Positions 2,821 to 23,500 of a DNA stretch of 64,000 nt are shown here, in pieces (within the stretch, counting starts at the first letter, position 1; the number at the start of each line of letters is the position of its first letter). The notes beneath the pieces were generated by a model, which saw only the letters and a program-made list of their open reading frames with translations, made no database searches and had not been told where the DNA came from. Both the position numbers and the translations under genes were made by a program. Origin of the DNA: Escherichia phage nomo; the sequence record MN850578.1; one strand, written 5' to 3'.

Positions 2821-3192
2821 ATGTTAGTAAAAGGTACCCACACAGTCAAACAACGTATTGAAGTTGAGATTGATGATTGTGAGCTGAAGCATATTTTACG
2901 GTCATGCTCCAACGTTTTGCTCCTTAGTATTCTTCAGGAGCGAGCGGAGAACGAGTTCTTAAATGCATTGGCAGGCCGTCCCGGTGACTTCTGTGTGCGT
3001 AAGCGTGGTGACAACAAGTCATGGTTGTGGGAAATCGATGCCGACTGGGATTACCACAAAAATGAGGGTATAGATGAGCCTATTCGTGAACTGACTGACA
3101 AAGAGATTCAGATGTACAATGAAGTTTGTCATTGGGCAACACGCCAACAAATTTACCTAGACCCTGTGTGGCTGATTGAAAATAGCCATTGA
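2821..3192 (+). CDS. hypothetical protein (123 aa)
   Basis: ORF with strong RBS agaggagg directly upstream of ATG at 2821. Confidence 0.45.
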   Translation: MLVKGTHTVKQRIEVEIDDCELKHILRSCSNVLLLSILQERAENEFLNALAGRPGDFCVRKRGDNKSWLWEIDADWDYHKNEGIDEPIRELTDKEIQMYNEVCHWATRQQIYLDPVWLIENSH

Positions 3193-3526: not shown

Positions 3527-3555
3527 TTGACAACAGTGATGGGGCCTAATATAAT
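3527..3555 (+). promoter_or_regulatory. sigma70-type promoter (TTGACA-17-TATAAT)
   Basis: Perfect -35 ttgaca 3527-3532, 17-nt spacer, perfect -10 tataat 3550-3555, upstream of ORF 3587. Confidence 0.6.
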
Positions 3556-3586
3556 GGCCCTATCAAAACGAAAGGGGACCACAGCA

Positions 3587-9246: not shown

Positions 9247-9492
9247 ATGAACAAAGGGTGGACATTTGTAGACGGCGTTAAAAACATGCCTCTAGGAAAG
9301 TATATTGTAGCCATGGCAGATGAGAATGGCAAGGTTGATTTCGGAGTTTGCGAGGTTGTTCTTGCAGGATCTGGTGACTATGCTCACAAAACTGGGATAA
9401 TTAACGGTCATTTCTACTTTGATTACAACCCTGTTGTGGCGTATATGGCTATGCCAGAGTTCGAGCTCCCAAAGGAAGGTGCAGATGTTTAA
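9247..9492 (+). CDS. hypothetical protein (81 aa)
   Basis: ORF with RBS caggag upstream. Confidence 0.45.
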   Translation: MNKGWTFVDGVKNMPLGKYIVAMADENGKVDFGVCEVVLAGSGDYAHKTGIINGHFYFDYNPVVAYMAMPEFELPKEGADV

Positions 9493-10039: not shown

Positions 10040-10500
10040 GGGGGATTTCTAAAATGGATTTCCTCCTTTTGATATTTCACCGGGCTGGATATTTTAAAAT
10101 TCTTAGAAAATCAGAAAATGGATCGAAAACTAAAATGGATTTTTCAGAGTAGGCGCGACAAGCTGAATAACTCATCCTATCGTTTGCACCATATTCCAGG
10201 CCACCATTATAGATTTCCCACACATGCTAACCTCCCTCTACTAGAACTTCCTCCACTTACCCTTGACCTTCTATGGTAACAATCTAACCGCTATCTTGAA
10301 GTTGCGGTGCAGCTTTCCAGGTACTCGATCTACTTTTCATTTCAGGGCTTGGATTTTCTGAAAATTTTTCTCGATAAATTTCTCAGTACTCGATCTGTTT
10401 TTCGTCTTCTGAATCGGATTTTCTGGAAATCGTTCCGGCTCTCAACCTGAAATTTTTGGGGACGAAATCGATTTTTCGTTTTCAGAAATGGATTTTTAAA
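10040..10500. repeat. iteron-like direct repeat region (AAATGGATTT x4; ~50-bp units GTACTCGATCT...GGATTTTCTGRAAAT x2-3)
   Basis: Direct repeats read at 10051, 10117, 10133, 10487 and tandem units 10317-10367 / 10382-10432; no ORF. Confidence 0.6.
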
Positions 10501-10610
10501 ATTTCTATATGGGAATATTTTAGTGGATACTATTTTATAGTAAATTGTTACGGAGGGTAATTAGCGTGCTAATTAAATTTATTAAATGCGAGGAGTTCTC
10601 ATTTAGAATC

Positions 10611-10629
10611 TTGAATGATAATCATTCTC
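10611..10629 (+). promoter_or_regulatory. Fur-box-like operator 1
   Basis: ttgaatgataatcattctc: 15 of 16 core positions match Fur consensus AATGATAATCATTATC. Confidence 0.55.
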
Positions 10630-11509: not shown

Positions 11510-11908
11510 ATGAAAACCACTACCTTTAATTTTGATAATGCGGACTTTTCTTTTTCTGATGTCAAGAACTACCGCCGTGATCGTGGATTTTACAAGGCTT
11601 ATAATCTGGTGGGCCTGGACGATGACAATAATTTGCACGAAGTAGCTGAGATCCGGTATTATGCCGCCGCCAGCGGGAACACTCACTACTGCGTGTTTTG
11701 GATTCACGACAACAAGAACAATAAGTACGGTTATACTGGCGGCAAGGCGAGCGGTCACGGTTACGATAAAGCTAACGCAGCACTTGAGAGCGCATTAAAT
11801 GCTATGGGGATCACTGCCGACGGCTGGATCTACGAAGAAGAGTTTTTGTCGGCACTTGCTGACCACCTGGGCTATAAAAAACACATTGTAACATGCGCCC
11901 ACGAATAA
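11510..11908 (+). CDS. hypothetical protein (132 aa)
   Basis: Promoter ttgaca at 11450; RBS taagagga. Confidence 0.5.
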   Translation: MKTTTFNFDNADFSFSDVKNYRRDRGFYKAYNLVGLDDDNNLHEVAEIRYYAAASGNTHYCVFWIHDNKNNKYGYTGGKASGHGYDKANAALESALNAMGITADGWIYEEEFLSALADHLGYKKHIVTCAHE

Positions 11909-11990
11909 AAATCATTGACACGCTGCAAAATTTAAGTAAACTAGACACAAAAGGCGGGAATGTTTCCCGCCAGCACAAAGGAAAAAGATC

Positions 11991-12386
11991 ATGAATAAGA
12001 ACGTACGCCGCATCATGAACGAACTGGCAAACGATGAAAAAATTATTGATATGCATTTGGTCAACATTTGCCGCCGTTGTGTAACATATAACAACCGCGC
12101 CGCAAAAGCGTGTGAGATGAACGCAAAAGGCACCTTAAAGCCCTTTCAGGTGGTTGTAAAATCTATAACTAGCGCAGCAGGCCAGGCGCAGGACCACAAC
12201 AACGAGAGCGCTAATATTGATCCGTCTTACGTAATGAAACGGATCCGGACTTGCAAGAATAAAGAGCAGGTATATAACGTCATAGATTGGCTGGACTCCC
12301 TGGGCGATGTGGTTTACAATAGGTTTTCTGCAGCTATCGAGATCCAGCTTGACAGATTGGACGGGAAAGTACTAAAAACTTATTGA
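11991..12386 (+). CDS. hypothetical protein (131 aa)
   Basis: Promoter ttgaca 11915; 5' stem-loop ggcgggaatgtttcccgcc; RBS aaaggaaaaag. Confidence 0.5.
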   Translation: MNKNVRRIMNELANDEKIIDMHLVNICRRCVTYNNRAAKACEMNAKGTLKPFQVVVKSITSAAGQAQDHNNESANIDPSYVMKRIRTCKNKEQVYNVIDWLDSLGDVVYNRFSAAIEIQLDRLDGKVLKTY

Positions 12387-12387
12387 G

Positions 12388-12434
12388 TTTATTTTTAGAT
12401 GGCCTTGACACCAGGGCCATCAATAAAGTAAACT
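12388..12434 (+). promoter_or_regulatory. repeated ~47-bp promoter/palindrome element, copy 1
   Basis: tttatttttagatggccTTGACAccagggccatcaataaagtaaac; inverted repeat gatggcc/ggccatc flanks -35. Confidence 0.5.
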
Positions 12435-12466
12435 AACCACAGTTGAGCGGAAAAGGAGGCTTAAAG

Positions 12467-12586
12467 ATGAGCACTACACGCCAGCACACAAAGGTAACCA
12501 TCATCGTTTGCATCATTGGGTACATCCTGGCGCAAATGTTGATGGGTAGCGCCAACGGTGTCGCAAAATTTTTCTTAAACTTTTAA
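12467..12586 (+). CDS. small hydrophobic peptide (39 aa, one predicted TM helix)
   Basis: RBS aaaaggagg; translation MSTTRQHTKVTIIVCIIGYILAQMLMGSANGVAKFFLNF. Confidence 0.3.
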   Translation: MSTTRQHTKVTIIVCIIGYILAQMLMGSANGVAKFFLNF

Positions 12587-12665
12587 TTGACAAGCTAACT
12601 TAAATCGATATAATAAGCACATAAACGGGAAAACTTCCCAGAACACACAAAAGGAGAAAAACACC

Positions 12666-13007
12666 ATGACTACTATGACCGCCTCAGAAAAAGCTATGCA
12701 GATCGCTGAACTGAAAAAACAGATCGCAGACCTTGAGAATAAGATCGATAACTTTGAAATCGACGAGGACAAGTACGACGAAAACTATGATGAATGGTTA
12801 GACGAGATCTACGGAGAAATTATGATCGGAAACATTTCTTTTCTTCCGTCGCGTATCCTCAAGGAGCTAGATCCTATCGCTTACCGCTGCGGATTTAGCG
12901 ACTACATCGACAGCCTGGATATTGAGGACGATGAAGAATACCAGGAATTACAGACAGAGTTAGAAGAAGCAAAAGAAGAGCTTGCGGAGCTGGAAGAAAA
13001 CGAGTAA
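12666..13007 (+). CDS. hypothetical acidic protein (113 aa)
   Basis: Promoter ttgaca 12587 with tataat; RBS aaaggag; highly acidic, coiled-coil-like. Confidence 0.5.
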   Translation: MTTMTASEKAMQIAELKKQIADLENKIDNFEIDEDKYDENYDEWLDEIYGEIMIGNISFLPSRILKELDPIAYRCGFSDYIDSLDIEDDEEYQELQTELEEAKEELAELEENE

Positions 13008-13009
13008 GC

Positions 13010-13054
13010 TTATTTTTAGATGGCCTTGACACCAGGGCCATCAATAAAGTAAAC
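13010..13054 (+). promoter_or_regulatory. repeated ~47-bp promoter/palindrome element, copy 2
   Basis: Identical to 12388-12434 over about 45 nt. Confidence 0.5.
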
Positions 13055-13096
13055 TTTATACTGTTAACACTGAACTAATGCATAGGAGTTAAAACC

Positions 13097-13342
13097 ATGG
13101 CAGCACTAATCACCAAATATTATGCCCCTACCAACACCAAAAGCGCCCGTATCATGGTAAAAGGCTTCGGACGTAAAAAGGTGTACACCTGGGATTATGC
13201 CTTAGACACGGAAGACAACTACACCAACGCAATGACCGATTTTATTAATGAACTAAATAAGCAGATCTTGACAAGTTATAAAGTGACTGATATTGCTTAT
13301 ATAGGTGAAGGCGGGATCTGTTTTGTAGGCATTGTGAAATAG
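13097..13342 (+). CDS. hypothetical protein (81 aa)
   Basis: ORF downstream of repeated promoter element; RBS ataggag. Confidence 0.5.
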   Translation: MAALITKYYAPTNTKSARIMVKGFGRKKVYTWDYALDTEDNYTNAMTDFINELNKQILTSYKVTDIAYIGEGGICFVGIVK

Positions 13343-13416
13343 TTATTTTTTCGGTGGTCCTGGCTGCAGGGCCATCTATAAAGATAATTTATCAACACCA
13401 TGAAAGGAGAAAGTAC

Positions 13417-13770
13417 ATGATCAGCGGGGCTAGTTTTATTATTGGCGCTATTGCTACGGCTTTAATTGTAAACAAGATCCAATCTAAAAACGAAAAAGAT
13501 AGCAACGCGCTCACAGAATACCCATTTTGGGTATTCAACGACAACGAAGACTACATAATCAAGTACAAAGATGAGAGAGGCGACCAGGTAACACCGCGAC
13601 CGATCCCAGCTTACAAGATGCAGGAAACACTATACCGCCTAAAGGCCGGAGGCGCAAAGATCGTAGACTTTTGGGGATATGATTGCAAGGATCAGGAGGT
13701 CATAAAACGTCGTATCCGGGCGATTCAGGCAAATATTGAAATTAGTAAAGGGGAAATTTATGAAAATTAA
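13417..13770 (+). CDS. hypothetical membrane-anchored protein (117 aa)
   Basis: RBS aaaggag upstream of ATG 13417; N-terminal hydrophobic helix. Confidence 0.45.
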   Translation: MISGASFIIGAIATALIVNKIQSKNEKDSNALTEYPFWVFNDNEDYIIKYKDERGDQVTPRPIPAYKMQETLYRLKAGGAKIVDFWGYDCKDQEVIKRRIRAIQANIEISKGEIYEN

Positions 13771-13957
13771 TTTCGAAAAAATTGTAAAGCGCCCCCACGA
13801 TTCCGAAGAGCTGCCGGAACGCCGCCAGCGTAACAATAAACTGAATAAACCGAAAAGGTTCGGGAAGATCTGGAGGAATCACTATGATCGCAAATTACCG
13901 GGCCTGCTTTTGGAACGTGAACGACAGGCGGAACGATACCGCCACAAAGGCAAATAA
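13760..13957 (+). CDS. hypothetical basic protein (65 aa)
   Basis: RBS aaagggga; Arg/Lys-rich translation. Confidence 0.35.
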   Translation: MKINFEKIVKRPHDSEELPERRQRNNKLNKPKRFGKIWRNHYDRKLPGLLLERERQAERYRHKGK

Positions 13958-13963
13958 CAACCA

Positions 13964-13994
13964 ACGCCCCGCCATTGTGCGGGGCTTTTTATTT
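13964..13994 (+). terminator. rho-independent terminator
   Basis: Hairpin gccccgccattgtgcggggc followed by tttttattt. Confidence 0.6.
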
Positions 13995-14127
13995 CTATCC
14001 TACGAATAGCGCCCCTGGTTGGCACCACAAACGCCACAAAAGCCCCTACCTATGCAATCCCCTTTCTTAGCCTGAAAACATCACCCAGGACCGTTTTATG
14101 GTGTTAAAAATATCTTTTATTTAAAGC

Positions 14128-14156
14128 TTGACACCTTGGAATCGCCTGGATATACT
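14128..14156 (+). promoter_or_regulatory. sigma70-type promoter (TTGACA-17-TATACT)
   Basis: ttgaca 14128-14133, tatact 14151-14156, upstream of ORF 14192. Confidence 0.55.
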
Positions 14157-14191
14157 AACCACATCAAAGCAAGAAGAAAGGAGTAAACGCC

Positions 14192-14452
14192 ATGCGTAAA
14201 TTAAAAAATTTTGATAAAGTCGATGTTGTCCTGAATAATTTTTACTACTGCAATAATAAGGCCGTTTGGTGGCGTGATAGTTCCACCGATAAAGTTAAAG
14301 CGCGCTTTCTCCAGGGGCACTGGCAAGGCCGCCCAGTGATTAAGATCCGGGGGCAATTGGTAGCGTTTAAAAATTGCCGCCGTGTTGATGACGTTGAAGA
14401 GATTCTAAACATTTTACGCCACAATAATTTAAAAAATAGTGTTGACAAGTAA
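14192..14452 (+). CDS. hypothetical protein (86 aa)
   Basis: RBS aaaggag upstream. Confidence 0.5.
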   Translation: MRKLKNFDKVDVVLNNFYYCNNKAVWWRDSSTDKVKARFLQGHWQGRPVIKIRGQLVAFKNCRRVDDVEEILNILRHNNLKNSVDK

Positions 14453-14526
14453 GCCTCAATAAGTATACTTAAACACACAGGCGGGAAAACTTCCCGCCAC
14501 TAACAAAGAAAATAGGAGAAAATATC

Positions 14527-15150
14527 ATGACCACCGTTAACATTACCGCAGGTTACAATTTATCTTTCGACGTGCTGACCGACGAACAAAAAGAAAAAGC
14601 CGTTGAAATGGTCCGCGAAAGAGAAGAACACAGCGGGGATAACTTTTTTGCAGAAAGTGTAATTGAATACTATAAAGAATATGTTTTTCCAGAGTATGGC
14701 CTTGAAGATACCGAAGTACATTGGTCAGGCTTTTGGTGCCAGGGTGACGGCGCGTCAATCAGTGCTGAAAACGTGGATTTAGAAAAATTTTTGCGTAAAG
14801 TAAAGGCCCTGACCAAGTTCCGATCAATTCGTCACTTGTTCGGCACAATGCACGATGGCGAGTTATCAGCCAGTGTTGAGCGTGATCCATATAGCCGCTA
14901 TAGTCACGAAAACACTGTAAGCGGATACATTGATACCACCTGGCTAGATCTGACCGCCAAACAAGAAAACAAAGTGGAAGACTTGGAAGAGCTGATCACC
15001 GAGACGGTACGGGAGCTATCCCGCAAGGTTTACGTAGACCTGGAGGAGGCCTATCTTGAACAGTTTACTACCGAAAACCTGATCGGCCTTATTGAGGCCA
15101 ATGATTGGCGGTTTGATGTGGATGAATATGGCGAGATGACTTTTTCATAA
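14527..15150 (+). CDS. hypothetical protein (207 aa)
   Basis: Promoter ttgaca 14442; 5' stem-loop ggcgggaaaacttcccgcc; RBS aataggag. Confidence 0.5.
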   Translation: MTTVNITAGYNLSFDVLTDEQKEKAVEMVREREEHSGDNFFAESVIEYYKEYVFPEYGLEDTEVHWSGFWCQGDGASISAENVDLEKFLRKVKALTKFRSIRHLFGTMHDGELSASVERDPYSRYSHENTVSGYIDTTWLDLTAKQENKVEDLEELITETVRELSRKVYVDLEEAYLEQFTTENLIGLIEANDWRFDVDEYGEMTFS

Positions 15151-15239
15151 ATAAAGTGTTGCAATAACCTAAAAACCTGCTATATTAAAACTCAAGGGGG
15201 CAAGACGTTTGCCCCACACAAAACAAAGAGGAAAACATT

Positions 15240-15620
15240 ATGAAAAACACTACCAAGGCTATTGACACCGTTATGTTTAACCTGGTTACATTCCGTGAAG
15301 ATATGAAAGATCTTCCACGTGAAACAGTGTGCGATCACATTGAAAACTATCGCAAACTAATCAAAGAGTTGCCCCTAAAACGTGACCAGTATGCGGCTAA
15401 CGCTATGCTCAACGCCATGATCAAAAAGATGATCCAGTGTGATTTAACCCTGGCCTATGACTATGCGGGTGGTCGTTTTGCAGTATACAATCAGCCCGTG
15501 CCCGGTATGGGCACCACCGAAGAATTGCACGCGCTCAATCTAAAACAAGACGTATGGGATAACATGCCCCGCGTGGTGGTGTGGGCAGAAAGCGGAAAGA
15601 TTTACGGCGATAATTTTTAA
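15240..15620 (+). CDS. hypothetical protein (126 aa)
   Basis: 5' stem-loop ggggcaagacgtttgcccc; RBS aaagagga. Confidence 0.5.
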   Translation: MKNTTKAIDTVMFNLVTFREDMKDLPRETVCDHIENYRKLIKELPLKRDQYAANAMLNAMIKKMIQCDLTLAYDYAGGRFAVYNQPVPGMGTTEELHALNLKQDVWDNMPRVVVWAESGKIYGDNF

Positions 15621-15684
15621 TCAGGTAACAGGCGGCATATTTGCCGCCTTATTGTTAAACAGAACTGCAAAAGAGGTACATAGA

Positions 15685-16056
15685 ATGGAATTTATTATTT
15701 TGGCTGTAGTAGTTGCCTTGTTCAACGCCTGGATCGCTGGCAAGATGGGTAGATCCGCCTTTTTATGGTTTATTATATCTATTTTCCTGGGGGTGGTTGC
15801 AACTATTGTACTTGTTATCCTTGCAATTGTTGACAAGGGGAATAATAGAAAGGGTAAAGTATTTTCAGACCTGTACGACGCTCAAACGTTTGTCAACGCC
15901 TATTATAGTGATCTTCCAGTCTCCCTACGCTGCAGCCTGGCACAACAAGTTTTCGATGAGGCTAAAACCAGAGATCAAGCCCATGAGATATGTTTAACTG
16001 AGGCGGATCGCCTATTTGAGAGGAATAGAAAATATGTGGGCCAACCGTTTAAATAA
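15685..16056 (+). CDS. hypothetical membrane protein (123 aa, two predicted TM helices)
   Basis: RBS aaagagg upstream of ATG 15685; hydrophobic helices. Confidence 0.45.
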   Translation: MEFIILAVVVALFNAWIAGKMGRSAFLWFIISIFLGVVATIVLVILAIVDKGNNRKGKVFSDLYDAQTFVNAYYSDLPVSLRCSLAQQVFDEAKTRDQAHEICLTEADRLFERNRKYVGQPFK

Positions 16057-16541
16057 TGCCACGTTAATTAATCCCTTTAGTGAAGATTTGAAGCCAGCCG
16101 CCTGGCGTGATGGATTCAATAACGAACGCTTTATTTTCAAGCCTGATCTTGAGGAATTTTATAACAATGGATCGAACAACGACAGAGATAATTTTTCTTG
16201 TGGTGTGCGTAGTGATGGTACTCCTGGGGGCCATTGTAAACCACGTCGCTACTAACAGGGGGAAAGGGGGAGACGATGACACCCAAGGATAAGCCCCGCA
16301 CCGATAAGGCGCGCCGTGTTATGGTATGGCTTGAGATCATCGCCCTTGAAATATTGTTAGGGGTAGGGATGTACTTTATCGCTGTAAGTAACTAAGAACG
16401 GCCCCCCGATCATGGGGGCCTATCTTTAAAAAAAAAAAAAATTCTTCCGGGGTGTTGCAATCCGGTCCGGAATGTGGATAATAACAATCAACGGGGAGAC
16501 ACTCCCCACCGCATAGACAAAGTTCCAAAAGGAGAAACAAA

Positions 16542-16742
16542 ATGAGCAACAATATCCGCGTTATTAACTTCAAAAAAGAAGAAAAAATTGCCGTGCTGAT
16601 TGACGGTCAAGAAATCTTTAAAGGTGATTATGAAGATCATCAAACGGCGATTAGTATCACTCGCGTGATTGGTTACCATAATTTTTACCCTCAAGGCGCT
16701 GAGGCAGCAGTAAAACGAATTAAAGAGATTGTAGGCCTGTAA
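16542..16742 (+). CDS. hypothetical protein (66 aa)
   Basis: Promoter ttgcaa-17-taataa; RBS aaaaggag. Confidence 0.5.
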   Translation: MSNNIRVINFKKEEKIAVLIDGQEIFKGDYEDHQTAISITRVIGYHNFYPQGAEAAVKRIKEIVGL

Positions 16743-16743
16743 A

Positions 16744-16790
16744 ATTTATTTTTAGATGGCCTTGACTCCAGGGCCATCAATAAAGTAAAT
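16744..16790 (+). promoter_or_regulatory. repeated ~47-bp promoter/palindrome element, copy 3
   Basis: tttatttttagatggccttgactccagggccatcaataaagtaaat; one mismatch in -35. Confidence 0.5.
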
Positions 16791-16833
16791 TTAAACCCTG
16801 TTAAAATAATCAGTGCAAAAAGGAGTAATGATC

Positions 16834-17133
16834 ATGTTTATCCAGGCTAATAATCTTTATTTCTTTGATGGTCAGATCGTAGACGGCGTGGAGGTGGAAA
16901 TCACCGGGTGCCCTGGCGGTCAGGTTATGACTTTTCGGAATAATGCCTTTGATGATTCTCATATCGTTATGAGAATGGAAGTTAGTAAGCTGGATGACAA
17001 GAAAACACTTATCGACTATTCCGTCAAAGATCATCCAGACTACCACATGATCTATGGTGATTTGTGCATTGTTGACCGTGACAAGGTGGGCGGCATTGTG
17101 ATCGCTATTGTGAACGATGTTTTCTCAAACTAA
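16834..17133 (+). CDS. hypothetical protein (99 aa)
   Basis: RBS aaaaaggag about 8 nt upstream of ATG 16834. Confidence 0.45.
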   Translation: MFIQANNLYFFDGQIVDGVEVEITGCPGGQVMTFRNNAFDDSHIVMRMEVSKLDDKKTLIDYSVKDHPDYHMIYGDLCIVDRDKVGGIVIAIVNDVFSN

Positions 17134-17150
17134 TTTCAGCAGGTGATTTT

Positions 17151-17501
17151 ATGAAAGTAAAACTATATTACCTTAATGAGCTTAACCCCCTTGCCCAGGT
17201 CCGCGCCCTGGCTAATACCTTGATTTGTGAGAAATCTGTATATTGTGTTGAGCTTAACGCCATGCGTGAACGTCTCAAAGGTGGTTACTTTGACATCCAT
17301 GCTGCAATCAACGGCCTGAATATAGAATTTATCCGCTTACGTAACAGCCGCCAGAATCTGGCAAGAATGGAACAAGATCCGGCCCACCTTCGTAAGCTGG
17401 TTATTGAAAATCATCTGATGTTTAATGCCGATGGTGATTATTACCATTTTCACCGTAAACGCTGGTACCGTGGCGGCAATACAGGCAAGAATGCAAAATA
17501 A
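17151..17501 (+). CDS. hypothetical protein (116 aa)
   Basis: ORF with RBS caggtg upstream; hairpins follow the stop. Confidence 0.5.
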   Translation: MKVKLYYLNELNPLAQVRALANTLICEKSVYCVELNAMRERLKGGYFDIHAAINGLNIEFIRLRNSRQNLARMEQDPAHLRKLVIENHLMFNADGDYYHFHRKRWYRGGNTGKNAK

Positions 17502-17702
17502 GGCCCCAGGCAGGGCCTGCAGCGATATAATCACATAAAGGCTATGCGGTTGCATGGCCTTTATTATTTTAGCGTTACAGCGGCCCCAAGGCGCTTAAAA
17601 AATTTTTAAAGAAGTACTTGCATCAAGTCCTACAATATGGATAATAGGACGTGTCAGGGGGGCGGCCCCCAATCATTAACCGGATAGATAGGAGTTAAAA
17701 TC

Positions 17703-17987
17703 ATGGCTATTGTCACCGTTGGCGATGTAGTGGAAATGGAAGCAAAATACTTAAAAGCGGGTATGCATATCCTACGGAATGATCAAGAATTGTTATTAAC
17801 GATGGTAGACTATAATCCCGGCCAGGATTATCCAAGCATCGACTACTTTTTTGAGTATGTTGATGAAGAATTGAAAGAGGATGAGGCTTATCAGGGTGAA
17901 TTCTGCAATTTCTTTTGCCCTGATGAGGTTGTAAAAGTTATCTATCAACCTGGAGTACCTTTCCCGCTGCACGCTATCAATAAATAA
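17703..17987 (+). CDS. hypothetical protein (94 aa)
   Basis: Promoter ttgcat 17615; 5' hairpin gggggcggccccc; RBS taggagt. Confidence 0.5.
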   Translation: MAIVTVGDVVEMEAKYLKAGMHILRNDQELLLTMVDYNPGQDYPSIDYFFEYVDEELKEDEAYQGEFCNFFCPDEVVKVIYQPGVPFPLHAINK

Positions 17988-18041
17988 ACCTGGCGGGGCC
18001 GAAAAGGCCCCAATTATGAAAATAAAGAGAGGTAAATCATC

Positions 18042-18275
18042 ATGATGGAACAAATTAAACGCGCTGAGGCTATTAATGGCAATGTGATCTATTTTGTCAG
18101 CAAAAACGAAAAAGGCGTACCATATGCGGCGGTAATAGTACAACCTGACGGCGATTATTGGTTTACTGTATACGGATCTTATTCTTTCGGGCGTCCGGTT
18201 CATGATAGAATTTTGAAAGTAGCAAATCCGACCGGGAAAAATATCACAGCAGAAAAATTTTTTGAAAATAGTTGA
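18042..18275 (+). CDS. hypothetical protein (77 aa)
   Basis: 5' hairpin ggggccgaaaaggcccc; RBS agagagg. Confidence 0.5.
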   Translation: MMEQIKRAEAINGNVIYFVSKNEKGVPYAAVIVQPDGDYWFTVYGSYSFGRPVHDRILKVANPTGKNITAEKFFENS

Positions 18276-18351
18276 CATGACCATATAAGACTGTAATATA
18301 TAAATCAAAGGGGGGCAACAAGCCCCACCAACCACAAAGAGGATAAAAATC

Positions 18352-18531
18352 ATGGCTATTATTGCAAAGACTGAGATCGTAGGCTTAGATTCTATTCTCC
18401 TCGCATATGAGGAAGCTATAGAAATGTATGTGGTTTCCTATGGTGAATATATCCGTGAATATAAATCTATTGATCTAGCTTTTGAATGTTATATTCGCCA
18501 GGTCAATAAAGCATATGATGATTATCGTTAA
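18352..18531 (+). CDS. hypothetical protein (59 aa)
   Basis: Promoter ttgaca 18272; 5' hairpin; RBS aaagagga; below ORF-track cutoff. Confidence 0.4.
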   Translation: MAIIAKTEIVGLDSILLAYEEAIEMYVVSYGEYIREYKSIDLAFECYIRQVNKAYDDYR

Positions 18532-18613
18532 AATAGTTTGACAACAGTCAACAATCTGGTAAAGTGTACTACATAGCGCGGGAATACTTCCCGCCATTAA
18601 TGAGGGTAATTTA

Positions 18614-18751
18614 ATGAAAACTTTCAACGCAACAGCCTCGACAATTGGTTATATTATTACAGTACAAGCCGTGGATCTGGTAGCAGCAGCAAACAAGATT
18701 AAAAAGATGATTCCGCCAGGTAGTGAATTTTCCGTTTGGGAAGTAAAATAA
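18614..18751 (+). CDS. hypothetical micro-protein (45 aa)
   Basis: Promoter ttgaca 18538; 5' hairpin gcgggaatacttcccgc; RBS tgagggt. Confidence 0.3.
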   Translation: MKTFNATASTIGYIITVQAVDLVAAANKIKKMIPPGSEFSVWEVK

Positions 18752-18940
18752 ATCTTGACAATAATTTATTACTTGATAGACTGTATTTCGTAGTGCGGGG
18801 CAATAAGGCAACGCCCATTAATGAGGGTAGAATCATGTTAGAGAAAATTTTCACGGTTGTAGTAGTTGGCCTGGCATTATCGGTTGGATGGGTTGCAACT
18901 ATGGCTAACATGATCCTATCTTCCCACGGTATCGGTTAAA

Positions 18941-19165
18941 GTGAATCAAATGATCACGAATAAAACAGGTAAAACGGAATTCTTGCGCGGCTTGCAGGTC
19001 GGCAAGCCTGAGATCTGGCATTGCACTAAAACACCACGTGACGAAATGAAAGACTTCACCGCCACGCTGCAACGGGTAAAGATATCCATCACGCAGAAAA
19101 AGGCCTTGATAGTGGTGGAAGGTGAGATCCCTCAAACCGTTGTTATAGTTGAGCGTACAGCATAG
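18941..19165 (+). CDS. hypothetical protein (74 aa); start may be ATG 18950
   Basis: ORF in array; start codon ambiguous. Confidence 0.4.
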   Translation: MNQMITNKTGKTEFLRGLQVGKPEIWHCTKTPRDEMKDFTATLQRVKISITQKKALIVVEGEIPQTVVIVERTA

Positions 19166-19256
19166 TTTAATTTATACCGATACCCGAAAATTAACCAACA
19201 AAGCATAAACAGGCGGTTACCGCCGCCTTAAACGTAGCAGAAAGAGGATAGACACA

Positions 19257-19541
19257 ATGAAAAAGATGATCGCAGTGGTTGCCCTGGTTGTTGGACTTAA
19301 TGCGCCTGTAATGGCTAAAGAGCTGGCAAAAGAGGTTAATCTAACGGATATCCATGCCGTCAATCAAATCGGGGTTACTTATCGCTTATGCCTTGCCGCT
19401 AAAACTTTTAATGACGGTACAACAGAGTACTACGGATTCGAGGGTATCCGGTGCGGTGAGCTTGCTCGCGACCTTAAGGAAGATCCAGACCTGGAGGATC
19501 TACCCATAACCGTGAACGGTAAAGCTTACTTTAACCGTTAA
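19257..19541 (+). CDS. hypothetical secreted/periplasmic protein (94 aa) with N-terminal signal peptide
   Basis: RBS aagagga; translation starts MKKMIAVVALVVGLNAPVMA (signal-peptide-like, AxA cleavage motif). Confidence 0.5.
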   Translation: MKKMIAVVALVVGLNAPVMAKELAKEVNLTDIHAVNQIGVTYRLCLAAKTFNDGTTEYYGFEGIRCGELARDLKEDPDLEDLPITVNGKAYFNR

Positions 19542-19690
19542 CCGTGAAAAAGATAATCATTACCTTGGGGATTGTGGCGGGATCGCTGGCGCTCTTTCCC
19601 CTTATGGTTAGATATGTGCTGATCAGTATTGTCCTGGTGGTCAGTGATCTACTAGAAACGGTTGGCACCTTGTTTTAAAGAGCGATAAAA

Positions 19691-19882
19691 ATGAATGTTG
19701 AACAAGTTAGAAAGGTATTGGCGGTACTGCGTTATCATAATCATTGCAAGGTGAAGAATGATCCTGATTATCTTGATTCATCCCTTGAAGAGGATACACT
19801 ACAAGCCATAAGCAACATGCAAGAATTGCTTAAGCGTATGACAGAGAAAAACCGACCGGACTACATAGGGGGTAAAATATGA
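19691..19882 (+). CDS. hypothetical protein (63 aa)
   Basis: ORF in array. Confidence 0.4.
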   Translation: MNVEQVRKVLAVLRYHNHCKVKNDPDYLDSSLEEDTLQAISNMQELLKRMTEKNRPDYIGGKI

Positions 19883-20190
19883 TCGCTATTACGCCAACCG
19901 TTTTAGATTGGTATCGGCAACGCATAGCGCCTCCGCTGGCTATCTTCAAAGATGCGGAAGCAAAACAACGCCGGATCTCAATACATGAGATCATCAACCT
20001 TAACGCTGGAGGCACACCATACCGCCCAGGACCTGGCCGTGAGATGGACAATACGTTAGCGATCCTGAAGATACGCCGTAAACGGTCCTCCCTTACGCTG
20101 GACTCATTACACACAATGCAGCCTCCGTTCCAGGTGACCGGGAAACGGATCGCCAGGTCCTGGACAAAGGCCAATGATCGGACCGTATAA
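19879..20190 (+). CDS. hypothetical protein (103 aa)
   Basis: ATGA overlap with upstream ORF. Confidence 0.4.
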   Translation: MIAITPTVLDWYRQRIAPPLAIFKDAEAKQRRISIHEIINLNAGGTPYRPGPGREMDNTLAILKIRRKRSSLTLDSLHTMQPPFQVTGKRIARSWTKANDRTV

Positions 20191-20261
20191 ATAAAAGTGT
20201 TTTGGTACTGATTTTGGGGTTGACTTGTTCGGCCCCTTTTGCTATTCTTATTAAACGGGCG

Positions 20262-20300
20262 GCACTTGGGAACAGGGGGAGACAATCACCAGGCCTGCCT
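20262..20300 (-). repeat. conserved GC-rich element copy (reverse orientation) matching 10643-10682
   Basis: Reverse complement reads ggcaggcctggtgattgtctccccctgttccc. Confidence 0.5.
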
Positions 20301-20407
20301 GTCATATAAGAACTATAAAAACCGTTGACATCTGCCATGGGGTGAGGTAACATTTATCTTGAAGGGGCAAAAGTGCCCACACAACAACCAGAAGAGAGGA
20401 AAACATT

Positions 20408-20680
20408 ATGTCAAGCTGGATTAATCAAGAAGTCGAATCACGTTTTAATGCTATTTGGGATCTCATCGAAAAAGAGGACGGAACATCAAGCCCTTATCTC
20501 AATAATCTTGAATTCCATTTCGTGGAAGCGATGAACGCAGAACATGATCACGAAGGTGGTGCGGATGAGTTCGCTAAAGGGTATGGCTTCAACAATGCCA
20601 ACGAAATGATCGAGGCGGTTGTACTCCAGGCTGAGGAAGATTATCAATTAAAAACGCTTGAATTCTGCCGCCGTAAGTAA
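20408..20680 (+). CDS. hypothetical acidic protein (90 aa)
   Basis: Promoter ttgaca 20325 - 17 - taacat; 5' hairpin gggcaaaagtgccc; RBS agagagga. Confidence 0.5.
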   Translation: MSSWINQEVESRFNAIWDLIEKEDGTSSPYLNNLEFHFVEAMNAEHDHEGGADEFAKGYGFNNANEMIEAVVLQAEEDYQLKTLEFCRRK

Positions 20681-20742
20681 TAAGATAATGACACGGGCCA
20701 AAAGGCCCACTAAACAAAAACCACATAAAGAGGAAAAACATC

Positions 20743-21006
20743 ATGAAACGTCTTGACCAGCTCAAACTAGTTCAATATATGGCTTATCGTGTTCTGGAAG
20801 TCCAGAAAGGTAGCAAAAAAGAGGTTTGCGAGAAAGCTTATAAGATCTTTACCCGCAAAAAAGATGACTGGATGCTACGCCAGACCAAAAAGGCTGACAT
20901 CTTGGGGTACCTGGAAGAAGAGATCCGACTTGAAGAACAAGAAGAGATCCGCCGTAGTGAGGCAGATTATCAGGCAGCTTGGGAAAACTGGATGAGCAAC
21001 AAATAA
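20743..21006 (+). CDS. hypothetical protein (87 aa)
   Basis: 5' hairpin gggccaaaaggccc; RBS aaagagga. Confidence 0.5.
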   Translation: MKRLDQLKLVQYMAYRVLEVQKGSKKEVCEKAYKIFTRKKDDWMLRQTKKADILGYLEEEIRLEEQEEIRRSEADYQAAWENWMSNK

Positions 21007-21025: not shown

Positions 21026-21050
21026 AGGGGCTTAAAGCCCCTTTCTTTTT
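21026..21050 (+). terminator. rho-independent terminator ending the + strand gene block
   Basis: Hairpin aggggcttaaagcccct followed by ttcttttt. Confidence 0.65.
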
Positions 21051-21059
21051 GTCTTCTCT

Positions 21060-23500
21060 TTTCCTACCATAAACGGCCCTACCTGGCAAGTGGAATAATT
21101 GACGAGCCATCAATCCCACACACTGTACAAATATACATGGAAAATAACTATTGCATAATTTTTCATTGTGTGGTAGCAAGGCCATTTTTACACGTTTTTC
21201 CTTCCAAAATTGCACGTAATGCAGCATTTGCACAAAATTTAACCTGATGCATATCTTCAATAGCTTGTCAACAACTAAAAATCTTTATAAGTCATACACT
21301 TACATAACTACAAAAACGTTTTCTACGTGAAAAATCGAGTATAACTATAGCCGCCAGATCTCAGAATTTACGTACGCTCGCCATTCTATAGCCTGCTAAG
21401 CATTTATTCCAACCATAGAATAACTGAATAGTCAATACCTGCATAAAATAATTATTCGTGTAAACTGCATAACATAAATCGGCCCAGGTGTCAACATTTT
21501 TCGTAAACAGTCTGGAATTGTCACGTTAGGTTACCATAAGTAGAGAAATCTTTAGTCGTCTAATGTTTACTGTACGTTACTATATTAACTGAAATCATTA
21601 GATGACTAATAGAAAGATAAGAAATAATTAACAATACAATTATTTTATCTGTAACAATAAGGCAACTATGCAAACGAATGGCATGGCGCGACGGAGTCGC
21701 GACATAATATAAAAGCAGTAACCATCACCCCCGTGATAGTTTGTCTGCAAACTATTAATCAGATCATAGTTGCCTTGTATTTAGTTAATCATGACATAAC
21801 AAGCAAGGCAACTATAGATCTGCTAATAGTTGCCCTGCTTTTATATTATGTCATGCTAATTATAATCAGTGCGATTATTGTCATGTATAATTATTGTCAT
21901 GCAAACGAATGGCATGGCTGATTATCGGTGTGTAAACAGTCAATCATGTAAATGGTTAGCATGTGAACAATCAGGAATGTAAACAATCCAGTGTGTAAAC
22001 TAATAGGTGTGTAAAAGTGTCATGTTGTGTCAGTTAGGTCACATTATGTCAGACAAGTTTTTCTCCTCTTTGTCAAGTGCTGCATGAAAAATTTACAAGC
22101 TTGTATGGTAGCATTTTTGCGGCCCTGTTTACATTCAGGAGTGTATGTATAATCCTTGTTGTGTGGGCGTTTAGACGTCTGGACGGTCAGAAGTCTGCAG
22201 GTCAATATCTAATCTATTGGCTGCTAACTATATCCCCCACAAATAATAAGAAATATAATTGTTATGTGCGTAAACAGTAACCCATGTTATCAATCCCTGT
22301 ATGTATCGCCAGTTGTGCGCATAATGGGTATTATGTTAAATTGCCCGTAATGATAACTATTCTCACAATGATAGGTATTCTCATTCACCCCCACAAGATA
22401 GGTTGCAAATGTTGTGCCACTGTGTGAACGGCCTCACCTATTAATTTGCCTCACTGCCTCGATATTTGAGAATTGTTATAAGAATGAGAAGTATTCCCAT
22501 TCCGTCCGCCTGGCAGCACTCCAGTCGCTACGGCTCCTGACAGGGCAGCACTCCTGTAGGTCAGGTCAAAATCGTGGTAGAACTGGACCTGTTCGGATAT
22601 TTCTGGCTGACTCTTCAGGTCTGTGTGGGAAAAGCCAACCCCTCCGGCGGGGCAGGGGATATCTGCAGGAAAATTGCAGGTCAATTAAAAATTTACGTGG
22701 TGTATGAAGCGCTCTTCAGGCAAGGCATGTATTAGAGGATGAAACCCTCTTCAGGCAATGATATTTGTGGGTGGGATATTTGCTGGAAAGCCAGATATGA
22801 CGGGACTCCCGGCGGGGCAGGGGTAGTACAGACAGGGAAAATATGAGGATGTAATTGGGGAAATTGATCAGACAGGTAGAGTATGGAATATGTTACAGGT
22901 ATGTTAAATATGGAGGTTGAATATCTGTAGGATTTGTGTGTAAAATCAAAGACTTAAGGGGTGTTGTGGTATTTTCTATAAATAATTCAAGTTTAATAGG
23001 CAATATTTGTCTCTATCCGCTTTGTGTGGTAAACAGATTCAGATGAAATTGGTTTACAAGTGTATACATAATATACAAATTAAAGATACAAGAAACCCCC
23101 CTCCCCCCTCGGCTACCATTCACCTTTTCCTCTGACTGGTACTTAAACACTTATTCAGACTCTTCAGGTTATCACCCATATATCATATGGCAGTGACTGG
23201 TGTCCTCCGGCCCCTCTTTCGTCACCCGTCCGCTTCGCCATGCTAATGCCATAGCCAATGGTTCGGTTGTTCACCCTGTTCACTCAGGTGTATCTCCATA
23301 CCCCTTCAAACCGAAGAGAACAGAAAACCCGAATTACTCGGTAAAAGAAAAGAGAAGAACTTAATTTTATCAGGATAGGCAAGAATGTCAAGGCATGACT
23401 GCTCACTAAACAAGCAAACAGTCATGTGTGGAAGGTAAGTGATTGTGGTGGTGGGAAATTTAGTTGAAAGATGTGTTATAGGTGCGCTTCCAGCACTTTA
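21060..23500. other. 2.5-kb non-coding convergence region with several repeat families
   Basis: No convincing ORF; repeats gcaaacgaatggcatggc (x2), tgtgtaaac-like array 21928-22016, ctcttcagg...ccggcggggcagggg units 22606-22840. Confidence 0.55.

Follow-up and report, generated by a model that had tools for sequence, protein, structure and literature searches.

The 64,000-nucleotide (nt) stretch of Escherichia phage nomo (sequence record MN850578.1; hereafter the window) contains an early region with a series of small plus-strand genes, nearly all of which are labelled "hypothetical protein" in annotated relatives. Many of these genes of unknown function are preceded by a composite cassette consisting of a promoter, a short GC-rich hairpin, and a leader. 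Bases 11900–20800 matched 289 phage records, the best being Escherichia phages nimi (97.9% identity) and HdK5 (98.4%), and by this match the window belongs to an rV5-like myovirus of the genus Vequintavirus. Perfect hairpins were scanned for with a stem of at least 5 bp including at least 4 G-C pairs and a loop of 3–8 nt, and sigma70-type promoters were called in a separate consensus scan. The resulting hairpin layout is real, statistically solid, and broader than the list in the initial annotation of this DNA: the hairpins exist at a tight spacing from their promoters, have no U-tract behind them, are followed by an open leader, and recur in the same layout in other genera.

The initial annotation had listed 8 hairpins and placed each between the −10 element and the ribosome-binding site. 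All 8 are present and were recovered by the scan. Four were correctly located (11953, 14480, 15197, and 17657), and the other 4 were off by 2–8 bases, their starts being 17995 (listed as 17999), 18578 (18586), 20365 (20363), and 20695 (20697). The placement holds for 6 of the 8, which have a sigma70-like −10 box upstream, and fails for 17995 and 20695, since both lie just past a stop codon without a recognisable promoter. Absent from that list were the promoter-coupled hairpins at 12627–12639 (weak), 16493–16507, and 18312–18326, a decayed hairpin near 18795–18815, and a promoter-less one at 19211–19228.

All of the cassettes lie on the plus strand. The cassette at 11915–11993 comprises the promoter TTGACA-16-TAAACT (11915–11942), a 10-nt gap, the hairpin GGCGGGAA-TGT-TTCCCGCC (11953–11971), and an A-rich leader before ATG 11991; its fold energy is −14.6 kcal/mol with a z-score of −3.4, and its promoter matches rV5 P194. 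At 14442–14529, the promoter TTGACA-16-TATACT (14442–14469) is followed after 10 nt by the hairpin GGCGGGAA-AAC-TTCCCGCC (14480–14498; z −5.2), which is kept in 8 relatives with the loop CAC in locus L007, and then by ATG 14527. A paralogue of this module (repeat families D2 and D6) forms the cassette at 12587–12668, where the promoter TTGACA-16-TATAAT (12587–12614), a 12-nt gap, and the weak hairpin GGGAA-AAC-TTCCC (12627–12639) precede ATG 12666; this hairpin (−5.5 kcal/mol, z −1.7) is by itself non-significant. The cassette at 15159–15242 contains the promoter TTGCAA-16-TATATT (15159–15186), a 10-nt gap, the hairpin GGGGCAA-GACGT-TTGCCCC (15197–15215; z −3.0), and ATG 15240; orthologous loops read ACGTC or ATGA, and 1 G:U pair occurs in L005 and L007.

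Three cassettes are preceded by a terminator. At 16455–16544, a terminator-like hairpin (16400–16420) lies upstream of the promoter TTGCAA-16-GATAAT (16455–16482), a 10-nt gap, the hairpin GGGGAG-ACA-CTCCCC (16493–16507; z −3.2), and ATG 16542; the orthologous loops have 3, 4, or 5 nt (for example, ACA, CAA, and CTAA). At 17618–17705, the terminator at 17535–17564 is followed by the promoter TTGCAT-16-GATAAT (17618–17645), an 11-nt gap, the hairpin GGGGG-(G)CGG-CCCCC (17657–17670), and ATG 17703; the z-score of the whole leader is only −0.2 because the region is G/C-rich. A variant of this hairpin with a CCTCC 3′ arm can be read manually as G:U-paired in 5 relatives; RNAalifold gives G:U in 2 of them and an unpaired C:U in 3. 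At 20325–20410, the terminator-like hairpin at 20216–20236 precedes the promoter TTGACA-17-TAACAT (20325–20353; a match to rV5 P168), an 11-nt gap, the hairpin GGGCA-AAAG-TGCCC (20365–20378; z −2.5), and ATG 20408, and L005 has a longer variant, GGGGCAAGACGTTTGCCCC, at this site. Since the hairpins at 16493, 17657, and 20365 follow a U-tract terminator and a promoter, they are not needed to stop upstream transcription.

The cassette at 18272–18354 has the promoter TTGACA-16-TAATAT (18272–18299; a match to rV5 P174), a 12-nt gap, the hairpin GGGGC-AACAA-GCCCC (18312–18326; z −2.8), and ATG 18352. That at 18538–18616 has the promoter TTGACA-16-TAAAGT (18538–18565), a 12-nt gap, the hairpin GCGGGAA-TAC-TTCCCGC (18578–18594), and ATG 18614; homology with 7 relatives ends at 18575–18585, exactly at this hairpin, and other genes lie downstream in those genomes. 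In the cassette at 18755–18837, the promoter TTGACA-16-TAGACT (18755–18782) and ATG 18835 enclose the decayed hairpin region (about 18795–18815). The relatives have GGGCG...CGCCC (5 bp, 14-nt loop) at this site, and the window copy is weakened by a G-to-T change.

Three plus-strand hairpins stand alone. The hairpin GGGGCC-GAAAA-GGCCCC (17995–18011), for which the consensus scan called no promoter upstream, begins 7 nt after the stop codon at 17985–17987 and ends 30 nt before ATG 18042; it is kept in all 9 relatives compared. The hairpin AGGCGG-TTACCG-CCGCCT (19211–19228; z −1.9) has no recognisable promoter, lies 28 nt upstream of ATG 19257, and is conserved among relatives with loop indels. 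The hairpin GGGCC-AAAA-GGCCC (20695–20708; z −3.8) has no convincing promoter and is located 14 nt past a stop codon and 34 nt upstream of ATG 20743. The promoters upstream of the hairpins in the window correspond to earlier rV5 predictions (e.g., P194, P185, P174, and P168). The promoter tables of the rV5 paper end 7–8 nt past the −10 box, and the portion of its text and tables available makes no mention of the hairpins.

The geometry of the cassettes is tight on one side and loose on the other. In the 9 promoter-coupled cassettes (7 scored automatically, 9 by eye), the hairpin starts 10–12 nt past the last base of the −10 hexamer, the 7 scored gaps being 10 nt (4 cassettes), 11 nt (1), and 12 nt (2); only 1 other hairpin start was found within 0–40 nt past a −10 box, at 18 nt. 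Most of the strong early promoters of this phage have such a hairpin behind them. Between the hairpin and the ATG, 19 to 34 nt intervene, depending on the cassette. The tight spacing from the −10 box together with the loose spacing from the ATG indicates a positional constraint relative to the promoter. When the hairpins were relocated at random, the mean number of couplings was 0.5 in the whole early region and 0.7 in intergenic DNA, against the 7 scored, and 7 was reached in none of 20,000 trials; the promoter–hairpin coupling is far above chance.

The predicted 5′ untranslated regions (UTRs) were also folded. In most of them, the hairpin is the sole notable structure; 3 have an extra weak helix, and those of 12627 and 17657 are non-significant. 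The z-scores are mostly −2 to −5, and 8 of the 9 promoter-coupled hairpins have fold energies of −8 to −15 kcal/mol, as expected of a stable 5′ UTR stem-loop. The Shine-Dalgarno sequence and the AUG are unpaired in most of the predicted UTRs. The leaders past the hairpins contain 55% A and 13% U, compared with 26% T in the region overall, and no sense-strand U-tract was seen behind any of the hairpins. Stems of 5–9 bp and loops of 3–8 nt vary among both paralogues and orthologues.

We compared the region with 9 Vequintavirus loci, including that of HdK5 (L001, accession MK373780). All 9 have a hairpin at each orthologous site, with loops varying freely in sequence and length, and the orthologous stems remain paired, at times through a register shift. 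Changes in the length of G- or A-runs beside the hairpins or in the 5′ arm shift the hairpin register by 1–3 nt. Homopolymer lengths that differ among close relatives include those of the A-run at 16428–16441 and of the G-runs at 15196–15200, 17657–17662, and 18308–18315.

The layout was also found in other genera, with gaps of 8–14 nt, mostly 10–12 nt, and with many unrelated stem sequences: at about 15 promoters in tuntematon (Phapecoctavirus, Stephanstirmvirinae), about 13 in UPEC06, 4 in KE22 (Seunavirus), and 2 in CR3 (Certrevirus). In a fold test that did not require a hairpin beforehand, the sequence behind strong promoters folded at −8 kcal/mol or better in 23%–50% of cases in the Vequintavirus loci, 72% in tuntematon, 59% in UPEC06, 50% in KE22, and 39% in CR3, compared with 6%–20% of random 34-mers. 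The same test in RB49 gave 7% of strong promoters versus 6% of random 34-mers, and the layout was not seen there. The palindrome GGCGGGAAnnnTTCCCGCC occurs in 115 IMG/VR contigs, with a T-rich, terminator-like tail in roughly 40%, and is promoter-coupled with an rV5-like leader in 4 contigs, 3 of them of 137–153 kb. A sequence-specific motif was therefore dropped as an explanation, since this palindrome is found also in unrelated viral contigs, often in a terminator-like form. The specific feature is the arrangement, and the stem sequences are not special.

Pairing is nearly complete in the 48 unique stems, in which 321 of 329 positions are Watson–Crick, 3 are G:T, and 5 are A:C; this count is partly circular because the stems were chosen for near-perfect pairing. 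Wobble asymmetry (3 G:T versus 5 A:C) was tried as a test of sense RNA versus DNA and was uninformative. In 54 of 68 hairpins, which are unique though not independent, the sense RNA folds more stably than its antisense counterpart, by a mean of 1.0 kcal/mol. The more than 12 arm sequences and the stems and loops that vary even between orthologues argue for selection on base pairing itself. An antisense terminator was considered and dropped: the minus-strand T-rich runs of some window hairpins are missing in other genera, in which the upstream flank is CACATAGG.

The hairpins share the GC-rich 5–8 bp stem and the short loop of rho-independent terminators, but an A/C-rich leader takes the place of the sense-strand U-tract. 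None of the listed hairpins was called as a rho-independent terminator on the plus strand, the next bases being, for example, ACACAAAA, ACTAACAA, and AGCACAAA. In the HdK5 record (MK373780), features 3054–3072 and 9427–9441, which correspond to the hairpins at 11953 and 18312, are labelled "putative transcriptional terminators", and a gene start lies 20–25 nt downstream. As no U-tract follows either hairpin, this label is probably wrong.

A closer relationship exists with the promoter-early stem-loop cassettes (PeSLs) of the T4-type phages RB49, phi1, PST, and nt-1 (Arbiol et al. 2010, PMC2839356; Comeau et al. 2014, PMC4122927). In RB49 and phi1, PeSLs consist of strong sigma70 promoters and G-run/loop/C-run stems, followed by a Shine-Dalgarno sequence and an ATG, beside orphan genes; the roles proposed for them are attenuation of transcription arriving from upstream and the shuffling of genes as modules (PMC2839356; PMC4122927). 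Their stems fall into 5 positional subclasses, of which a minor one lies downstream of the −10 box (Arbiol et al. 2010, PMC2839356), and terminator activity has been reported for 1 RB49 stem. Comparison with the window revealed that (i) a strong sigma70 promoter likewise stands beside a G-run/loop/C-run stem in an intergenic spacer, with a CA-rich leader, a Shine-Dalgarno sequence, and an ATG behind it; (ii) dense repeats (families D1–D6) likewise precede small orphan genes in a variable region; (iii) genes appear to have been inserted, deleted, or replaced at the edges of cassettes; and (iv) some of the window stems overlap the −35 and −10 boxes.

These overlapping stems are confined to a 49-nt repeat family, the stem at 20216, and that at about 3540. 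The 49-nt repeat TTATTTTTAGATGGCCTTGACACCAGGGCCATCAATAAAGTAAAC (12386–12434, 13007–13055, and 16743–16791) has a 10-bp stem around the TTGACA −35 box of a predicted promoter; the helix can be lengthened by the T-rich and A-rich flanks, and on the antisense strand it would resemble a terminator. A decayed copy at 13341–13389 has kept the stem and lost the −35 box. At about 3540–3566, GGGGCC-TAATATAAT-GGCCC encloses a −10 box, and at 20216–20236, GGGGTTGACTTGTTCGGCCCC encloses a −35-like TTGACT followed by TTTT, which is both terminator-like and promoter-like; both match PeSL positional classes.

The dominant class in the window differs in position. A scan of a 50-kb stretch of RB49 including several variable regions placed stems, relative to the end of the −10 box, at offset −23 in the promoter spacer (7 stems) and at −15/−13 around the −10 box (6), and none downstream. 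The RB49 stems thus lie outside their own transcript. The common PeSL positions are ahead of the promoter, within it, or across part of it; the 9 window stems are instead found at +10 to +12 relative to the −10 box and so form part of the transcript. The carriers are also unrelated, PeSLs being hosted by Straboviridae and the present elements by Vequintavirinae and Stephanstirmvirinae. An RB49 homologue of the gene at 20408–20680 was looked for; RB49 was absent from the protein-search matches listed, and the lead was dropped.

Homology breakpoints with relatives occur at or beside hairpin modules, at 18575–18585, 18791, 20237, 20709–20736, and 21043, and one promoter module has different downstream genes in different genomes. 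The nearness of the breakpoints to the hairpins is partly trivial because viable breakpoints must fall in short intergenic spacers. The gene-sized segments 17151–17501, 18586–18892, and 19884–20236 are missing or replaced in several close relatives, and most breakpoints of these segments and of 20709–20736 abut GC hairpins or promoters. The leader at 20709–20736, just past the hairpin at 20695, aligns twice, in overlapping alignment pieces, in rV5 and EmilHeitz, which may be read as a duplication flanking an extra gene. The layout shared with PeSL-like classes and the breakpoints in the window place the elements among composite promoter/stem-loop cassettes. They are best read as a variant, placed inside the transcript, of elements already known as promoter/stem-loop cassettes and as 5′ UTR hairpins, and their geometry differs from the RB49 type.

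As to function, we favour tentatively, at slightly short of even confidence, the reading that the hairpins are RNA stem-loops at about +4 to +22 of strong sigma70-type early transcripts, which both protect the 5′ end and form an intercistronic barrier. The order of the cassette is a promoter, a 10–12-nt gap, a G-run/C-run hairpin, an open, A-rich and U-poor leader, a Shine-Dalgarno sequence, and an ATG. On transcripts from the cassette's own promoter, a hairpin at or beside the 5′ end would limit the access of RppH and of the 5′ sensor of RNase E; on read-through or processed polycistronic RNA, the hairpins, including the promoter-less copies, would act as intercistronic barriers shielding the flanking cistrons. 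The cassette would thereby supply a standard, stable, and well-translated leader to any gene behind it. We infer the transcription start positions, the formation of the hairpins in vivo, and any effect on mRNA half-life. In support of 5′ stabilisation, the hairpins keep a tight distance from the promoter and not from the ribosome-binding site, lack a U-tract, are followed by an open leader, and in 3 cases (16493, 17657, and 20365) stand behind a U-tract terminator plus a promoter. The variation in loop (3–8 nt) and stem (5–9 bp) is more in keeping with a structure than with a fixed site for protein binding. With only 5–9 bp, the stems are too short for RNase III sites, and this explanation was rejected.

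Two kinds of known element resemble the hairpins in this respect. The 5′ UTRs of ompA and papA and the T7 gene 10 leader likewise begin with a stable stem-loop, behind which come an unstructured leader and then a strong ribosome-binding site, and in both cases the effect is expected from structure and not from sequence. Such stabilisers begin within about 0–4 nt of the 5′ end, whereas the window hairpins have a predicted 5′ tail of 3–6 nt, as measured from inferred start sites. The intercistronic stabilising hairpins of selective RNA processing and stabilisation, such as REP elements, are also GC-rich and lie between cistrons without a U-tract, which fits 17995, 19211, and 20695; most window copies, however, stand at a fixed distance from a promoter, which an intercistronic role does not require.

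A number of observations weigh against 5′ stabilisation. Canonical transcription starts 7–8 nt past the −10 box, which puts the predicted start of the hairpin at about +4 to +7 and leaves an unpaired 5′ tail of 3–6 nt. Stabilisers of this kind reportedly tolerate roughly 2–4 unpaired nt, and the predicted tails are at or beyond this limit; RppH wants at least 2–3 unpaired nt, for which the predicted tails suffice. RNase E loaded on a 5′ end readily bypasses orthogonal stem-loops while scanning (PMC9943677). Three good promoters (8632, 11449, and 14128) are without any hairpin, and 3 hairpins resembling those of the cassettes (17995, 19211, and 20695), 2 of them among the 8 initially listed, are without a promoter. 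Other GC hairpins of the region overlap a −35 or −10 box and cannot be in their own transcript. Stem mismatches show no excess of G:U over A:C, and the energy gap between sense and antisense folds is largely due to 1 conserved flanking G:U pair (GG-stem-TC) and to A-rich dangling ends. Compensatory changes on both sides of a stem were found at 0 of 16 pairs in 3 orthologue alignments; the alignments yield no evidence of covariation, as the relatives differ too little and such changes as they have are indels or fall in loops, and the recurrence of the layout across genera is the stronger evidence. In the literature on rV5-like and phAPEC8-like phages, neither mapped start sites nor usable transcriptomes were found. 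On balance, the protection from 5′-end-dependent RNase E decay put forward by the initial annotation appears plausible and somewhat strained by the predicted 5′ tails, and the copies that have no promoter suggest an additional intercistronic role on RNA produced by read-through or processing.

The best-surviving alternative, which we consider unlikely, is that the hairpins are PeSL-type elements, that is, the stem-loop half of mobile cassettes that attenuates or insulates read-through and provides short repeats for recombination, by which small genes are inserted, deleted, and swapped, its presence in its own transcript being incidental. The published description fits, down to the orphan genes and the subclass downstream of the −10 box, and so do the window stems over a −35 box (the 4 copies of the 49-nt repeat) and over a −10 box (about 3540–3566), the breakpoints at hairpin modules, the same promoter module serving different genes in different genomes, and the dispersal of the GCGGGAA...TTCCCGC family as a repeat (D2). 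However, the RB49 stems lie at −23 or −13/−15 and never downstream, as opposed to about +4 to +22 with a tight gap in the window, and the proximity of the breakpoints is, as noted above, partly trivial. The missing U-tract also makes intrinsic termination unlikely, attenuation would strike the cassette's own promoter as well, and 3 of the hairpins already stand behind real terminators.

A more specific form of RNA protection would involve Srd. Among the reported gene products of rV5 is a homologue of T4 Srd (gp11), whose gene lies outside the window; in T4, Srd stimulates the action of RNase E on host mRNA. Together, these reports raise the speculation that phage transcripts might need protection. 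It is conceivable, though improbable, that the hairpin is a lineage-specific "self" tag that spares rV5- and phAPEC8-like early mRNAs from Srd-boosted RNase E, or an attenuator of upstream read-through that spares its own promoter, the 10–12-nt spacing being in either case the core of an exchangeable module.

We give little credence to the proposal that the hairpin is a handle for a phage or host RNA-binding protein that regulates the early mRNAs jointly, for instance by shutting off their translation, targeting them for decay, or causing antitermination. Certain stems do recur, flanks included, within and across genera, such as TAGG-GCGGCAATGGTGCCGC-TCAC and GCGGGAA-nnn-TTCCCGC, and the GAAAA pentaloop at 17995 has what we take to be a resemblance to lambda boxB. 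Against such a handle, the window stems are diverse (GGGGCAA, GGGGAG, GGGGG, GGGCA, and GGGCC), the loops vary in sequence and length, and the palindrome GGCGGGAAnnnTTCCCGCC is present in unrelated viral contigs, roughly 40% of the time with a terminator-like T-rich tail. A lambda-type nut site (boxA plus a boxB hairpin with a conserved GNRA-like pentaloop) does not fit either: only 3–6 nt of predicted RNA lie upstream of the hairpin, which leaves no space for a boxA-like element, and the loops differ. A search of the whole window against Rfam at gathering thresholds returned no known RNA family; at E-value thresholds, 1 weak and unrelated match was returned (Clostridium-PBP, E = 0.05), which we treated as a chance match.

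Equally doubtful is that the hairpins were merely inherited with duplicated promoter modules and now have little or no function. Several modules are clear paralogues (D2, D3, and D6), the copies at 12627 and 18795 are weak or decayed, and 3 promoters are predicted to work without a hairpin. Passive inheritance sits poorly with a 10–12-nt gap that is maintained despite divergence of the bases separating the −10 box from the hairpin, with pairing at 321 of 329 positions in many stem types (a partly circular figure, given the choice of near-perfect stems), and with a layout kept across 2 subfamilies. The last alternative, a DNA-level palindrome acting as an operator for a dimeric repressor of the early promoters or as a replication or recombination structure, is very improbable: perfect palindromes with conserved arms and variable centres immediately past the start site, where roadblocks typically act, and stems without an excess of G:U over A:C would agree with it, but more than 12 unrelated arm sequences, with arms of 5–9 bp and centres of 3–8 nt that differ in length even between orthologues, are unsuited to a fixed dimer geometry, and the stems are too short for cruciform extrusion.

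Two further stretches of the window were noted. About 2.4 kb at about 21050–23450, between the plus-strand early block and a minus-strand block, contains only short open reading frames (ORFs) with weak start codons; an 18-nt tandem repeat lies inside it at 22349–22383, and the cumulative GC skew reaches its maximum just past it. This stretch is probably the "non-coding" box of the rV5 genome paper. In a 335-nt ORF-free spacer at 10280–10614, short direct repeats, TACTCGATCT and GGATTTTCTGRAAA among them, occur along with a long AT-rich hairpin (10452–10489).

The "terminator" labels that GenBank records attach to hairpins of this kind are probably wrong. In a different geometry, the layout takes the idea of mobile regulatory cassettes, known as PeSLs, past the T4-type phages to the Vequintavirinae and Stephanstirmvirinae. 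Those members of the group that serve in therapy or biocontrol carry compact parts that are open to trials in synthetic biology. If the hairpins set mRNA stability or insulation, the cassette would be a natural, portable module of a promoter plus a standard leader, through which a large lytic phage could keep predictable the expression levels of dozens of small genes that are unrelated and were acquired horizontally.

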